Virus genome (UHGV): UHGV-0044338
DNA: 12,437 nt
Strand: one strand, 5' to 3'
Source of the DNA: a virus
The notes under the pieces were generated by a model. It did not search any database, was not told the DNA's origin, and saw nothing but the letters and a program-made list of their open reading frames with translations. This document shows positions 1,548 through 12,186 of the stretch, one piece after another. The number at the start of each line of letters is the position of its first letter. Within the stretch, counting starts at the first letter, position 1. Position numbers and translations under genes: made by a program.

Positions 1548-1624
1548 TTACCCCTTAGGTAATTAAAAACCACATAAGACATGAAATCAATAGACATTAG
1601 AACATTTTATTACCCATCAGGTAA
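1548..1624 (-). promoter_or_regulatory. Sigma70-type promoter (TTGATT-17-TTTAAT on minus strand) flanked by two TTACC-N5-GGTAA operator palindromes; drives the nuclease/nin-like genes
   Basis: Perfect palindromes TTACCccttaGGTAA (1548-1562) and TTACCcatcaGGTAA (1610-1624), centres 62 bp apart. -35 is revcomp of 1585-1590 and -10 is revcomp of 1562-1567; the -10 hexamer shares its last base with the downstream operator. Confidence 0.55.
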
Positions 1625-3240: not shown

Positions 3241-3433
3241 AGGTTTCCCCTCTTGCACTCTTTAGTGCACAAGCAAATTCATTACGATGGCGGTTGGCGC
3301 TATTCATTGCACATTCAACACATGTTCCGTTCAGAACATACCTTTCAGAGAGATGGCCGTGACGGCACCGCTTTCCTGTGAAATAGCGATTTAACCCGGC
3401 TTTTGCGGCCTCCATTCTGGTTACTATCTTCAA
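3221..3433 (-). CDS. Small putative zinc-binding protein (CxxxH ... CxxC), function unknown; sits where cII lies in lambda
   Basis: 70-aa ORF with CRHGHLSERYVLNGTCVEC. The track start is TTG at 3433; an alternative ATG is at 3415-3413. Start uncertain. Confidence 0.4.
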   Translation of the reverse strand: MKIVTRMEAAKAGLNRYFTGKRCRHGHLSERYVLNGTCVECAMNSANRHRNEFACALKSARGETYGKQLD

Positions 3434-3545
3434 TTTTTCCGCCCCTTTTTGTTATTGATATTGGCTATTTTGCACAATTGGAAAATTTGATCAACCAGAT
3501 TTGGTTTTTTATTACCTTTGAGGTACGAATAGATATGAAAAGAAA

Positions 3546-3620
3546 CCCCCGGGGGGGGGGGGCGGGGGGGGGGGGGGGGGNNNNNNNNNNAAAAAAAAAA
3601 AAACCCCCGGGGGGGGGGGG
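3546..3620. other. Assembly artefact / unresolved gap (poly-C, poly-G, N10, poly-A, poly-C, poly-G)
   Basis: Mirrored homopolymer blocks around ten Ns. Not a biological repeat; true sequence here is unknown. Confidence 0.9.
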
Positions 3621-3876: not shown

Positions 3877-3901
3877 AGCTATTGCCTGATATTTATTTCA
3901 G

Positions 3902-3983
3902 ATAATAAATATTCACCCATAAGGTAACAAAAATCAAGGATAGTTACCCATGAGGTGCATTTACCTGTTGGGTAATATTGCTT
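3902..3983. promoter_or_regulatory. Divergent immunity control region with three operator-like sites and candidate divergent promoters
   Basis: Sites TcACCcataaGGTAA (3913-3927), TTACCcatgaGGTgc (3944-3958) and perfect TTACCtgttgGGTAA (3961-3975). Candidate leftward promoter TTGTTA-17-TATTAT (revcomp of 3925-3930 and 3902-3907) overlaps the first site. Candidate rightward -35 TTGCTT (3978-3983) lies 3 bp past the third site, but its -10 is poor. Confidence 0.55.
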
Positions 3984-4030
3984 TAAATTGAATCATCTTC
4001 TGATTCAGATATGAGGCGATTTTCCAGAAA

Positions 4031-4615
4031 ATGAAAAGTATCCAGGACGTCCGCAGGCAAAATCTCAACGACTTGATCGACCGTGAATTCAATGGTGTTC
4101 AGACGCGGATGGCAGAAAAACTTGGAACTCAGGCAAATCTGGTAAACCGCTGGGCTCTTGGCAAAAAGGTTATCGGCGACCAGGTTGCGCGAAAAATTGA
4201 AGCTGCCGCCAATAAACCCCGTAACTGGCTTGATATCGATCGCTCGCTTTCTCAGGAGGGGTTTCAGCCTGTCGGCCCAAGCGACATTGGTCAGCTGGCG
4301 GCTCACAACCTGGAACGCTGGATGAGCGAAAGCCGCGACCTTTCAACTCAGGGAAAACTTCACCGCGCATCCGGCGTCGCCCAGGTGACAATCAGCCGCC
4401 TGTTAAACAATGAGGTCAGCGTTTCCATTTCCACCCTGGAGAATGTTGCATCCGCATTCGGGCGTCACGGCTATGAATTACTGATTCACCCGCACGACCC
4501 TGCGACTATCAACTATGACCGCTCGCGCTACGCATTGTTACCCGAAACAGAGAAGGCAAAGATCGAAAGTTACATTGAATTTGTCATCAGCCAGAACGAA
4601 AAAAACAAACAATAA
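4031..4615 (+). CDS. Prophage repressor (CI-like) with two XRE-type HTH motifs and no S24/LexA-type peptidase domain
   Basis: 194-aa ORF. HTH-like segments QTRMAEKLGTQANLVNRWALGKK (N-terminal) and LHRASGVAQVTISRLLNNEVSVSISTLENVA (central). No G-S-M / Ser-Lys dyad C-terminal domain visible. Divergent from the cro-like gene and followed by a strong terminator. Confidence 0.7.
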   Translation: MKSIQDVRRQNLNDLIDREFNGVQTRMAEKLGTQANLVNRWALGKKVIGDQVARKIEAAANKPRNWLDIDRSLSQEGFQPVGPSDIGQLAAHNLERWMSESRDLSTQGKLHRASGVAQVTISRLLNNEVSVSISTLENVASAFGRHGYELLIHPHDPATINYDRSRYALLPETEKAKIESYIEFVISQNEKNKQ

Positions 4616-4671: not shown

Positions 4672-4750
4672 ATTACCTAATGGGTAATTTTTTTAACTCA
4701 TATCTATTGACATCAAACCAAATACGCATAATTATTACCTCAACGGTAAC
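4672..4750 (+). promoter_or_regulatory. pL-like early promoter (TTGACA-17-AATTAT) flanked by two TTACC-N5-GGTAA operator palindromes
   Basis: Perfect consensus -35 TTGACA (4707-4712) with -10 candidate 4730-4735. Perfect palindromes ATTACCtaatgGGTAAT (4672-4688) and TTACCtcaacGGTAA (4735-4749), centres 62 bp apart; the -10 hexamer shares its last base with the downstream operator. Confidence 0.6.
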
Positions 4751-9159: not shown

Positions 9160-10332
9160 TTATTTATTACTGTCTTCCATCCACTTCTCAAACTTCGACG
9201 GGGAGAACGGAATCAGATCCGTATGCTCCCCGTTAATCCAGGAATCAATCATATCGGCCCACTGCTGCAACATGTAGGCGCGCTGTCTGGCGTATTCCGC
9301 TTTGTTATATACGGCGCGCACACCTTTCTGCTCATGTGCCAGAGCCTTTTCAATCCAGTCTGAAGGATAACCAGCCTCATGCAACAACGTACTGGCTGTA
9401 CGGCGCATATCGTGTACGGTGAAGTCCTGAATATGCTCACCATCTTCATTTATTATTTTCACCGTTCTGTCGATCAGAGAGTTCAGCGCGGCATTAGATA
9501 ATGGCTTCCGGAAGTTGTAACGACCAGGAACCAGATATTCACTTCCACCAGCGCACATCTGCAACCCGACCAATATATCCTGTGCCTGTTTAGGCAGGTA
9601 AATAACGTGCGCCCGGCTTCCCTTCATGCGGTCTGAAGGAATTGTCCATGTCCATTTTTTAAAATCTATTTCGTCCCACGTTGCATTGGTGAATTCGCCT
9701 TTACGAACCATAGTGATAAGCACCAGCTTTAAAGCCATTTTCATAGTACCCATAGCACCAATGGCATCCAGCGTGCGGAAGAACAGGCCAATTTCTTCTG
9801 GTGTCAGTGTTCGCTCTCGTGGTTTAAATATGGCGATAGACGAAGGTTTAATGTCAGCCGCAGGATTAAATAAACCATGACCACGGTCATTGGCGTGACG
9901 GTATACGCTGCTGATGATCTCCCTGGCCTGTACTGCTGTTGCACGGCCACCGCGTTCGACAATCCGGTCACACAAATCACGAACCATCGATGTGGTAATT
10001 TCAGCCATCATTTTGTTGCCAAGAACCGGAAGTATGTCACGGTCGATCACCGCCTGTTTCATTGCGCGGGTACTGTCAGCCAGGATGACGTGTTTCATAT
10101 AACTGTCGGTATGTACCGCAAACGTCTCGGCACCACGAATCTTTTTGATACCGTCACGTTTAGCCGCGGCCGGTGACTGGCCTGCTTTAAGCAGTTTCTT
10201 TGCAGCAATCAGTTCTTCCCGCGCTTCTGCCAGGCTGATACCGTCACGCCCATACTGCCCTATTACCAGTGTTTCGCGGCGACCGTTGATACGGTAGTCA
10301 TAGCGAAACGAGACCGTGCCTGACGTAAGCAC
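9160..10332 (-). CDS. Tyrosine recombinase / phage integrase (IntS/P4-like); frame as given starts at GTG 10332, but the conserved N-terminus extends upstream to GTG 10416 and is interrupted by TAA at 10396-10398
   Basis: 390-aa ORF with N-terminal arm-binding-like region (FRYDYRINGRRETL) and C-terminal catalytic region ending RAVYNKAEYARQRAYMLQQWADMID, collinear with E. coli IntS-type integrases as recalled. Upstream in-frame sequence encodes (M)LTDTK*KTLKPQDKLYKVSDRDGLYVAV. Confidence 0.85.
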   Translation of the reverse strand: MLTSGTVSFRYDYRINGRRETLVIGQYGRDGISLAEAREELIAAKKLLKAGQSPAAAKRDGIKKIRGAETFAVHTDSYMKHVILADSTRAMKQAVIDRDILPVLGNKMMAEITTSMVRDLCDRIVERGGRATAVQAREIISSVYRHANDRGHGLFNPAADIKPSSIAIFKPRERTLTPEEIGLFFRTLDAIGAMGTMKMALKLVLITMVRKGEFTNATWDEIDFKKWTWTIPSDRMKGSRAHVIYLPKQAQDILVGLQMCAGGSEYLVPGRYNFRKPLSNAALNSLIDRTVKIINEDGEHIQDFTVHDMRRTASTLLHEAGYPSDWIEKALAHEQKGVRAVYNKAEYARQRAYMLQQWADMIDSWINGEHTDLIPFSPSKFEKWMEDSNK

Positions 10333-10444
10333 AGCTACATACAGCCCGTCACGATCGGAGACCTTGTACAGTTTGTCCTGCGGCTTGAGGGTTTTTTATT
10401 TTGTATCGGTAAGCACAATTCACCCGTATAGAAACCATTTTCAT

Positions 10445-10480
10445 GACGGTATGAGAGTATACCTTTAAGGTAATACCGTC
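10445..10480. other. Nested inverted repeats in the int-guaA spacer; candidate attachment-site or recombinase-binding region
   Basis: GACGGTA (10445-10451) and TACCGTC (10474-10480) flank TATACCtttaaGGTAAT (10458-10474). No tRNA gene is present here. Confidence 0.25.
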
Positions 10481-10530
10481 ACCTGTACCGCCGAAAAATA
10501 TGGTGTAGAGTGAATAGAAATGAATACATA

Positions 10531-10560
10531 AAAACAAAAACCCTCTGTAAAAACAGAGGG
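10531..10560 (-). terminator. Rho-independent terminator of guaA (guaBA operon)
   Basis: Minus-strand RNA: CCCTCTG-ttttta-CAGAGGG followed by TTTTTGTTTTT, 50-80 nt after the guaA stop. Confidence 0.8.
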
Positions 10561-10608
10561 TTAAATTAGTATCTGAATAGGAATGAGTTGCTATGAGTTA
10601 GCTGTTAA

Positions 10609-12186
10609 TCATTCCCACTCAATAGTCGCTGGCGGCTTGCCGCTGATGTCATACACCACGCGGGAAATACCGTTCACTTCATTGATAATACGGTTGGAAA
10701 CGCGGCCGAGGAAGTCGTACGGCAGATGTGCCCAGTGTGCGGTCATAAAGTCGATGGTTTCGACAGCACGCAGAGAGACAACCCAGTCATACTTACGACC
10801 ATCGCCCATTACGCCAACGGAACGTACTGGCAGGAAGACGGTGAACGCCTGGCTGACTTTGTCGTACAGGTCCGCTTTACGCAGTTCTTCAATGAAGATG
10901 GCGTCAGCACGGCGCAGCAGGTCACAATACTCTTTCTTCACTTCTCCCAGAACACGAACGCCAAGGCCTGGTCCCGGGAACGGGTGACGGTACAACATGT
11001 CATACGGTAGGCCCAGCTCCAGACCAATCTTACGCACTTCGTCTTTGAACAGCTCTTTCAGCGGTTCAACCAGGCCCATCTTCATCTCTTTCGGCAGGCC
11101 ACCCACGTTGTGGTGAGATTTGATGACGTGTGCTTTACCGGTTGCAGAAGCAGCAGATTCGATAACGTCAGGGTAGATGGTGCCCTGCGCCAGCCACTTC
11201 ACGTCTTCCAGTTTCAGCGCTTCTTCATCGAATACTTCAACGAAAACGCGACCGATAATTTTACGTTTTGCTTCCGGATCGTTTTCGCCAGCCAGCGCTG
11301 ACAAGAAGCGATCTTCTGCCGGTACGTGAACAATGTTCAGACCAAAGTGATCGCCAAACATATCCAGAACCTGCTCTGCTTCGTTGAGACGCAGCAGGCC
11401 GTTGTCGACGAATACGCAAGTCAGGTTTTTACCGATAGCGCGGTGCAACAGCATTGCGGTAACGGAGGAATCCACGCCACCAGAGAGGCCGAGGATGACT
11501 TTATCGTCGCCCACTTGCTCGCGGATGCGGGCTACAGCGTCGTCGATAATTTTCGCTGGCGTCCACAGGGCTTCACACTGGCAGATATCACGCACAAAAC
11601 GCTCCAGCATGCGCATACCCTGGCGGGTGTGAGTCACTTCCGGGTGGAACTGTACGCCATAGAAGCGTTTTTCTTCGTTGGCCATGATGGCAAACGGGCA
11701 GCTTTCGGTGCTGGCTACGGTGACGAAGTCGGACGGGATAGCGGTAACTTTATCGCCGTGGCTCATCCAGACGTCCAGCAGCGGTTTACCATCTGCGGTC
11801 AGCGCATCTTCGATACCGCGAACCAGTGCGCTGTCGTTTACGACTTCAACCTGCGCGTAGCCAAATTCACGTTCGTTAGAGGCTTCAACGTGACCGCCCA
11901 ACTGCATTGCCATGGTCTGCATGCCATAGCAAACGCCGAATACCGGTACGCCTGCTTCAAAGACATACTGCGGCGCACGCGGGCTGTTTTCTTCGGTGGT
12001 GCTTTCCGGGCCGCCGGAAAGAATAATGCCGCTTGGATTGAAGTCACGAATTTGTGCTTCTGTCACATCCCACGCCCACAGTTCGCAGTAAACACCCAGC
12101 TCACGCACGCGGCGCGCAACTAGTTGAGTGTACTGAGAACCGAAGTCCAGAATGAGGATGCGATGCTTATGAATGTTTTCCGTCAT
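10609..12186 (-). CDS. guaA: GMP synthase (glutamine-hydrolysing)
   Basis: 525-aa ORF; N-terminal glutamine amidotransferase domain and ATP-pyrophosphatase motif SGGVDSS; matches E. coli GuaA as recalled along its full length. Confidence 0.97.

Follow-up and report, generated by a model that had tools for sequence, protein, structure and literature searches.

Which protein governs the control region between the divergent repressor and replication genes of a phiV10-like prophage, and does the repressor activate or limit its own synthesis there? This question is raised by a stretch of viral DNA with a length of 12,437 nucleotides (UHGV virus genome UHGV-0044338, in its whole length referred to as the window), which represents a phiV10-like prophage (Uetakevirus, epsilon15 group) integrated at guaA. 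In a spacer of 154 bp (3877-4030), between a minus-strand gene for a small helix-turn-helix (HTH) protein of 76 aa, termed cro-like here, and the plus-strand gene rep for a repressor of 194 aa, three palindromic sites are located which we name O1, O2 and O3. Very probably, these sites constitute an operator cluster of the repressor Rep in which O1 represses the lytic promoter. The best explanation overall, held with moderate confidence, is that of a central immunity operator of a phiV10/epsilon15-type prophage through which Rep controls both promoters. Regarding rep itself, the arrangement of sites and hexamers inclines us towards negative rather than positive autoregulation, exerted from O3, which would overlie the candidate rep promoter (P_rep).

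The operator cluster and its conservation

The motif TTACC-N5-GGTAA, searched with up to two mismatches, has 12 matches in the window compared to 3.67 +/- 1.91 in 200 shuffles, none of which reached 12. Scaling of the window rate gives approximately 0.045 expected matches for the spacer of 154 bp, where three matches correspond to a Poisson p of about 1.6e-5, and the complete phiV10 genome harbors 14 sites with at most one mismatch against 0.63 expected. Based on the window shuffles, the spacer estimate and the phiV10 counts, a chance origin is therefore excluded. Among the operators of the window, five are perfect and three have one mismatch. The search agrees with the original prediction, which had placed three sites of one family at the centres 3920, 3951 and 3968 with spacings of 31 bp (O1-O2) and 17 bp (O2-O3), and the location of this cluster between divergent genes for a repressor and a small HTH protein was likewise found as described. 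Its sequence shows the motif to be the repressor operator already known from these phages. The RefSeq record of epsilon15 lists seven “protein_bind: repressor” features of the form ATTACC-N5-GGTAAT, including an orthologous 62-bp pair downstream of rep, and annotates none of the three sites in the spacer between rep and gp39, probably because these deviate from the strict 17-mer.

The layout was followed through 18 distinct loci whose Rep proteins are 42-100% identical to that of the window. These include the phages phiV10, Tyrion, BUCT554, BUCT711, epsilon15 and SPC32H as well as prophages of Superficieibacter, Erwinia, Klebsiella, Citrobacter, Scandinavium, Serratia, Raoultella, Pluralibacter and Escherichia. 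The divergent loci were found by protein search and contig look-ups; a scan of IMG/VR gave only relatives with 99-100% identity. The order O1-30/31-O2-17-O3 (spacings in bp) is present in these loci, which come from Escherichia, Salmonella, Klebsiella, Enterobacter, Citrobacter, Serratia, Raoultella, Erwinia, Superficieibacter, Scandinavium and Pluralibacter. Homologues that share solely the DNA-binding domain, from Hydrogenovibrio, Thiomicrospira and Paraburkholderia, show neither the motif nor the layout and are uninformative.

Within the 18 loci, O3 is perfect throughout and is always separated from O2 by exactly 17 bp. The base 5′ of O3 is T in every locus, resulting in the sequence TTTACC. 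At 55 other perfect operators, T occupies this flank in 11% of cases and A is preferred (ATTACC). Since the T is invariant although it is the minority base at other operators, it points to a second constraint on this flank, which a -35 hexamer would explain. O1 is present in all loci and perfect in none; its variant half TCACC/GGTGA occurs in 15 of 18, the other three having different imperfect halves, and stands on the left side in the phiV10 group and on the right side in the epsilon15 group. O2 is perfect in epsilon15, SPC32H and BUCT711 and contains GGTGC, GGTTC or GGTAC in the other loci. The distance between O1 and O2 is 31 bp in 13 loci and 30 bp in five. The notion that 31 bp reflects half of the 62-bp spacing seen elsewhere fails as a rule, as the epsilon15 subgroup has 30 bp here and unchanged 62-bp pairs. 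Graded sites comparable to OR1-3 of phage lambda had also been proposed; the differences in consensus match are indeed conserved, but their order, as far as sequence tells, is unlike that of lambda.

Variation among close relatives follows the same boundaries. In 80 near-identical phages from IMG/VR, six of the 13 variable spacer positions fall into the 5-bp operator centres and none into a half-site or a proposed promoter hexamer; the central 5 bp of O2 are polymorphic with invariant half-sites. Because the layout is kept and polymorphism spares the half-sites, the comparison of sequences identifies the cluster as a unit which is functional and under selection. The imperfect operators repeatedly use the changes TTACC to TCACC or GGTAA to GGTGN (3913-3917 and 3954-3958 in the window, 20877 and 24692 in phiV10), which account for three of the six phiV10 sites with one mismatch. 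This suggests a tolerated or separately recognised variant half-site and not random decay.

Candidate promoters and the proposed action of Rep

Promoters were deduced by phylogenetic footprinting, combining an alignment of 16 sequences, a position weight matrix (PWM) scan of ten loci and a tabulation of all 18 loci. Beyond the operator half-sites and the two start codons, the invariant alignment columns are CAA 3935-3937, A3909, T3910, T3913, T3960, T3978, T3983, A3986, A3987 and T3988. All of these except T3978 coincide with the -35 and -10 hexamers of two proposed promoters, P_rep and the leftward P_cro in front of the cro-like and replication genes (Table 1). Only two candidates were found by the PWM scan at the same alignment columns in ten of ten loci, namely a leftward one with TTGATT (3937 to 3932), a distance of 16-18 bp and GAATAT, AATATT or AATAAT (3914 to 3908), and a rightward one with TTTACC (3960-3965), a distance of 17-18 bp and TTAAAT, TAAATT or TTTAAT (3983-3989). 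The -10 columns of P_cro read AATAAT or AATTAT elsewhere, with invariant A at position 2 and T at position 6. The -10 of P_rep is TTAAAT, TTTAAT or TCTAAT with invariant T1, A4, A5 and T6 between variable flanks. Among all operators of phiV10, epsilon15 and the window, O3 is the only one followed by TTAAAT at 17 bp.

TTTACC lies inside O3 and its -10 partner stands 17 bp further on; therefore, O3 covers the putative P_rep, and negative autoregulation is predicted. Relative to the expected start of P_rep (about 3995), O3 would extend from about -34 to -20 and O2 would be centred at about -44, leaving a gap of 1 bp to the -35 hexamer, with O1 located upstream. Relative to the expected start of P_cro (about 3902), O1 would extend from about -25 to -11 and O2 would be centred at about -49, with O3 upstream. 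An overlap of O1 with the core of a leftward promoter had been claimed before and is correct for the conserved pair TTGATT-17-GAATAT as well as for a second pair, TTGTTA-17-TATTAT.

Rep of the window contains the Pfam domain HTH_3 and is 99.5% identical to phiV10p40 and, over its full length, 42% identical to Rep of SPC32H. In phmmer searches it matches PDB 5D50_A with residues 1-190 (E = 4.1e-42) and 5D4Z, which covers the C-terminal part, with E = 4.2e-20. The motif NLVNRW in the N-terminal domain is invariant in an alignment with Rep of epsilon15 and SPC32H, and an S24 peptidase domain was not detected in Rep by Pfam. In the literature, Rep is described with DNA binding at the N-terminus, dimerisation in a middle domain, and tetramerisation and Ant binding in a C-terminal domain (PMC9986798, citing Kim et al. 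2016). It is reported to act as a tetramer on palindromic sites by pairing DNA-binding domains from different dimers, and the antirepressor Ant is reported to inactivate it by breaking the tetramer (PMC9638917, PMC9986798, both summarising Kim et al. 2016). In phage ZX5, which is 98% identical, overexpression of Rep reduced lytic gene transcripts by more than 99.9% (PMC9782041). The ant locus falls outside the 12.4-kb window. In phiV10 (98% identical), the Ant homologue p24 matches 5D50_E with E = 2.9e-46, and 22 bp upstream of the p24 start stands a perfect LexA box (CTGTATAAATACACAG).

The proposed sequence of events would be as follows. Rep on O1 would cover TTGATT-17-GAATAT over its spacer and into the beginning of its -10 and so block transcription of the cro-like and replication genes, and Rep on O3 would cover the -35 and the spacer of TTTACC-17-TTAAAT and limit its own synthesis. 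O2, at its fixed distance of 17 bp from O3 and between the two -35 hexamers, would most likely serve as the cooperative partner of O3 and stabilise binding; one Rep tetramer with its two DNA-binding units could hold O2 and O3 together. The same Rep would act on about 11 other phage operators, including two 62-bp pairs bracketing early promoters. At induction, Rep would not be cleaved and would instead be inactivated by the LexA-controlled Ant. SOS cleavage of LexA would allow Ant to accumulate, Rep tetramers would be converted to weakly binding dimers, and all Rep-controlled promoters would open. On a more speculative extension, to which we give a rather low probability, the region would work as an inverted lambda switch, with the perfect O3 on the rep promoter clamping Rep to a low level and the weakened O1 guarding the lytic promoter. 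O1 might then stay occupied through the avidity of a tetramer held at the same time by O2/O3 or by distant operators; once Ant produces dimers, the weak lytic operator would be released first, so that induction would have a sharp threshold although the repressor stays uncleaved. In this scheme, the doublet at 17 bp and the pairs at 62 bp would represent two binding geometries of a single two-headed tetramer.

Several points weigh against this explanation. Both promoters are consensus-poor; P_rep matches at 8 of 12 positions, and its -10 has T for the usual A at position 2. A T at this position is likewise found in the -10 of the E. coli trp promoter (TTAACT). In the window, the best-scoring leftward pair is TTGTTA-17-TATTAT (3930 to 3902). 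As a universal leftward promoter this pair was rejected, its -10 varying in the relatives (TGTTAT, GGTTAT, GATTAT, TATTAC); it is possibly an additional or alternative promoter in part of the phiV10 subgroup, including phiV10 and Tyrion. With a perfect operator on the maintenance promoter, synthesis of the repressor should apparently be held back strongly. This is awkward for a stable lysogen, unless a strong promoter or incomplete occupancy of O3 compensates for it. The choice of Rep over the cro-like protein as the likely binder draws on the epsilon15 annotation and on second-hand summaries. No transcription start or footprint for these phages was present in the literature searched, with the primary SPC32H and epsilon15 papers lying outside this search. 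Finally, the text of the ZX5 study reports a 75% drop in repressor transcripts on overexpression of Ant, an effect compatible with positive autoregulation; the figure legend of the same study names integrase as the gene measured, and the culture was a mixed infection (PMC9782041).

Alternatives for the sign of autoregulation

Positive autoregulation was the reading of the original prediction, in which O3 adjoined a candidate -35, TTGCTT, and served as an activating site like lambda OR2. This hexamer is present beside O3, with two bases (3976-3977) in between. With O3 ending so close to it, Rep could contact RNA polymerase at a weak TTGCTT promoter, and an activator-dependent promoter might look weak and dispense with a good -10; the reduced rep transcript reported in the ZX5 text would point in this direction as well (PMC9782041). 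This measurement is ambiguous, as text and legend disagree, and the hexamer itself reads TCGCTT, TCGGTT, TTCATT, TTCTAT or TTTCAT in the relatives. No -10-like hexamer follows TTGCTT at 15-19 bp in the window, where no candidate of the PWM scan reaches 3 bits, and TGATTC, which is aligned at the -10 position, matches TATAAT at one of six bases. Because TTGCTT is not conserved and lacks a -10, a promoter at this position was rejected. Furthermore, the centre of O3 would fall near -45 from its start, compared with a position near -42 for lambda OR2 and near -41.5 for class II activators, and the conserved pair TTTACC-17-TTWAAT would stay unexplained. Activation of rep from O3 is thus considered very improbable.

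A lambda-like dual autoregulation shifted by one site agrees with the geometry given by the conserved hexamers: if any site holds an OR2-like position it would be O2, with its centre at about -44 and the 1-bp gap, and O3 would stand in an OR3-like, repressive position. O2 would then activate P_rep, O3 would repress it at higher occupancy and O1 would repress the lytic promoter. The distance of about three helical turns between O1 and O2 (30 or 31 bp) would permit one tetramer to bridge both and leave O3 free, and the ZX5 text again hints at positive control (PMC9782041). On the other hand, O3 is perfect in 18 of 18 loci and O2 has two mismatches in 14 of 18, so O3 should be filled before or together with O2 and mask any activation. 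The strict 17-bp spacing suggests joint binding of O2 and O3, and a contact between Rep and sigma would be hypothetical. We regard this scheme as unlikely. Slightly higher, although still low, is the probability that the sites are shared or competed for by the cro-like protein, which might bind some of them, for example the TCACC/GGTGN halves in O1 and O2, with a preference opposite to that of Rep, as Cro has at lambda OR. The recurrence of the same A-to-G change in O1 (15 of 18 loci), in O2 of the phiV10 group and at phiV10 20877 and 24692 looks selected, and the adjoining gene does encode an HTH protein. Binding by this protein is a prediction, its sequence shows no detectable similarity to the DNA-binding domain of Rep, and unique palindromes at both predicted transcript starts (3990-4006 and 3889-3912) would be equally good targets for it. 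Moreover, such sharing would be compatible with control of both promoters by Rep and does not exclude it.

The 76-aa protein itself matches PHROG 35 “transcriptional repressor” (E = 5.6e-13) and has no Pfam match. Its AlphaFold model is a five-helix HTH fold (pLDDT 81.6), for which the best Foldseek matches are weak and comprise YdaS and domains resembling the 434 and lambda repressors (TM 0.56-0.62, E of at least 1). From its position and predicted fold, the label cro-like appears reasonable for a protein with a putative Cro function.

Further sequence elements were noticed around the two predicted transcript starts. At the rep start, 3990-4006 form a perfect palindrome, GAATCA-TCTTC-TGATTC, which is unique in the window and in phiV10 and is kept in several relatives; one locus shows the compensatory change AATAA/TTATT. 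The palindrome could be a target of the cro-like protein. GAATCA-N5-TGATTC as a second operator family was dismissed, with one copy in the window and one in phiV10, no more than expected by chance. The predicted leftward start carries a perfect inverted repeat of 9 nt, ATATTTATT/AATAAATAT (3889-3897 and 3904-3912), and a direct repeat C[TA]GATA[TA] at 3886 and 3899 with a spacing of 13 bp. In another locus, both copies of the direct repeat change together to CTGGTAT and CAGGTAA, leading to Rep-like GGTA half-sites. An RNA-structure explanation was discarded, as the leaders with the palindromes 3990-4006 and 3889-3912 show no gain in folding over shuffled sequences (z = -0.48 and -0.64), and Rfam gave no matches in the window. 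Two other candidates for transcription of rep were rejected. TTGAAT(3988)-16-TATGAG(4010) is found in some loci of the phiV10 group only, has a -10 without the final T and would leave a leader of about 9 nt. A leaderless transcript from TACAAT, located 4 nt before the ATG in epsilon15 and SPC32H, has no counterpart in the phiV10 group.

Other operators and the setting of the region

The immunity region is 98-99% identical to that of the Escherichia phages phiV10, vB_EcoP_ZX5, TL-2011b and phiv142-3 and 76% identical to that of Enterobacter phage Tyrion, which likewise belongs to Uetakevirus. It is carried by 540 of 5426 complete E. coli genomes (about 10%). Synteny is kept in the annotated regions of phiV10, Tyrion, epsilon15, BUCT711, BUCT554 and SPC32H: rep is divergent from the small HTH gene, behind which the replication genes stand, and the genes for recombination and integrase lie downstream of rep. 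Open reading frames and Pfam matches of the window include DnaT, lambda P, DUF1064 and integrase. The junction between prophage and chromosome lies within 9160-12186, and guaA is also the integration site given for phage ZX5 (PMC9782041).

Table 1. Coordinates of operator sites, candidate promoter elements and neighbouring features in the window.
Feature	Position	Strand	Remarks
O1, TCACCCATAAGGTAA	3913-3927, centre 3920		one mismatch to TTACC-N5-GGTAA; variant half-site TCACC
O2, TTACCCATGAGGTGC	3944-3958, centre 3951		two mismatches, both in the right half; between the two -35 hexamers
O3, TTACCTGTTGGGTAA	3961-3975, centre 3968		perfect TTACC-N5-GGTAA
Candidate P_cro -35, TTGATT	3932-3937	-	TTG invariant in 16/16 aligned loci (TTGATT/TTGCTT/TTGCAA/TTGCCT)
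Candidate P_cro -10, GAATAT	3909-3914	-	17 bp from TTGATT; overlaps end of O1; predicted start about 3902
Candidate P_rep -35, TTTACC	3960-3965	+	within left half of O3; invariant in 18/18
Candidate P_rep -10, TTAAAT	3983-3988	+	exactly 17 bp after TTTACC in 18/18; predicted start about 3995
TTGCTT, -35 candidate of the original prediction	3978-3983	+	unlikely to be functional
rep, 194-aa repressor	4031-4615	+	homologue of SPC32H Rep, PDB 5D50_A
cro-like gene, 76 aa	3646-3876	-	phiV10p41, epsilon15 gp39
Downstream operator pair	4673-4687 and 4735-4749		62 bp apart; brackets early rightward promoter TTGACA-17-AATTAT (4707-4735, +)
Upstream operator pair	1548-1562 and 1610-1624		62 bp apart; brackets leftward TTGATT-17-TTTAAT (-) of the DUF1064 gene
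Tyrosine integrase	9160-10332	-	from open reading frames and Pfam
att core, ATTGAGTGGGAATGATT	10607-10623		core sequence from PMC9782041
guaA 3′ end	10609-12186	-	prophage-chromosome junction

The motif recurs in phiV10 and epsilon15 at orthologous positions, namely before the terminase, portal, tail-fibre and lysis genes, near ant, and beside attP/int. The 62-bp pairs stated for the window by the original prediction, 1548/1610 and 4673/4735, were found again, and all four sites are perfect. In the downstream pair, 4735-4749 lies over the -10/+1 region of the early promoter and 4673-4687 at about -62. The upstream pair mirrors this arrangement, with one site over -10/+1 and the other at about -62. 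Seven of eight further loci likewise keep a pair downstream of rep, spaced by 62/63 bp, and the pair orthologous to 1548/1610 has the 62-bp spacing in both phiV10 and epsilon15. Doublets of 17-18 bp also occur at the terminase end. Rep therefore appears to use two geometries, 17-18 bp doublets and 62-bp pairs, both of which fit a tetramer with two DNA-binding units; any assignment of bridged sites would be conjectural.

Two further sites of the family have one mismatch. ATACCTTTAAGGTAA at 10459-10473 is located between the integrase start codon and the att core, with orthologues in phiV10 (26870-26884) and epsilon15 (26882-26896) that are unannotated in both. This site may provide Rep control of int or have a role in the architecture of attP/attL. 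TTACCTTTGAGGTAC at 3512-3526 lies between the terminator of the cro-like gene and the next small gene and is kept in phiV10 (33112); the orthologous place in epsilon15 contains no match with up to one mismatch. This operator may act as a roadblock or as a long-range bridging partner of O1, approximately 400 bp away. To the left of about 3486, the similarity between the window (about 3430-3486) and phiV10 (4286-4350) breaks down, which marks a mosaic boundary within the small gene after the cro-like gene or adjoining it. In phiV10, a GC-rich rho-independent terminator hairpin (CCGCCGGATGGCGG) stands between the cro-like gene and the next gene. At this place, 3545-3620 in the window consist of G and C runs, ten N and poly-A, which is an assembly or scaffolding artefact and yields spurious terminator-like matches in a scan.

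Novelty and comparison with known systems

The repressor family, the antirepressor and the operator motif are already known, and the layout is common to epsilon15 and SPC32H. Possibly new are, for phages of the phiV10 type, an explicit map of O1, O2, O3 and the two promoters, further the three sites missing from the epsilon15 reference annotation, and the perfect site on the maintenance promoter as the reverse of lambda. In full-text searches, phiV10-type phages yielded no map of operators or promoters; the primary work on SPC32H and epsilon15 lay outside these searches, and an earlier mapping there is possible. The functional study of ZX5 merely speculates on promoters and operators (PMC9782041). 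Relatives of the immunity region are present in Salmonella, Klebsiella, Enterobacter, Citrobacter and Serratia, and the conservation-based map offers a concrete basis for reporter, footprinting and induction work. It also corrects a plausible and probably wrong lambda analogy, according to which the best site activates. If the inverted order of affinity is functional, the region would provide a contrast case for a bistable switch built from a non-cleavable repressor under antirepressor control.

The closest known systems are the Rep-Ant modules of SPC32H, SPN1S and epsilon15 (Uetakevirus), with which the present region shares a homologous Rep and, as seen in phiV10, a homologous Ant with a LexA box. 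The half-sites TTACC-N5-GGTAA, the gene order, the O1-O2-O3 layout and the 62-bp pairs are alike in SPC32H and epsilon15. The phiV10 subgroup differs in its degenerate O2 (GGTGC), which is perfect in epsilon15 and SPC32H, and, compared with the epsilon15 group, in the opposite side of the variant half of O1 and a distance of 31 instead of 30 bp between O1 and O2. The geometry of O2 and O3 also resembles the operators of C proteins such as C.AhdI and C.Esp1396I, XRE-type HTH proteins which bind two palindromes about 16-18 bp apart from centre to centre. There, the proximal site overlaps the -35, autorepresses and is weak, and the distal site has high affinity and activates. In contrast, the proximal site O3 is perfect here, and the proteins are non-homologous beyond the HTH fold. 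Concerning the flanking pairs and not the cluster, a parallel exists to gal (OE/OI) and lac (O1/O3), two-operator promoters closed by a tetrameric repressor: the 62-bp pairs bracket a promoter at about -62 and +1, and the repressor is likewise tetrameric. A loop of 62 bp would be far shorter than those of gal and lac, and looping by Rep would be hypothetical.

Lambda OR and the present region both contain three related palindromes between divergent lytic and maintenance promoters, the latter being deduced from conservation in the present case, and in both the outer sites would overlap the core promoters and the middle site would adjoin the maintenance -35. The spacings differ, with 30/31 and 17 bp here and 24 and 23 bp in lambda. 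The architecture of Rep is unrelated to that of the lambda repressor, as a non-cleavable tetramer with DNA-binding domains paired in trans and induction by an antirepressor; in place of the RecA-cleavable LexA/S24-type protein of lambda, Rep is without an S24 domain and homologous to the Ant-inactivated Rep of SPC32H. Activation from an abutting operator as in lambda is unsupported here, where the conserved -35 lies inside O3 and O2 takes the abutting position. With the match to the consensus serving only as a proxy for affinity, the predicted maintenance promoter carries the perfect site and the lytic promoter the imperfect O1, which is the reverse of the order known from lambda.

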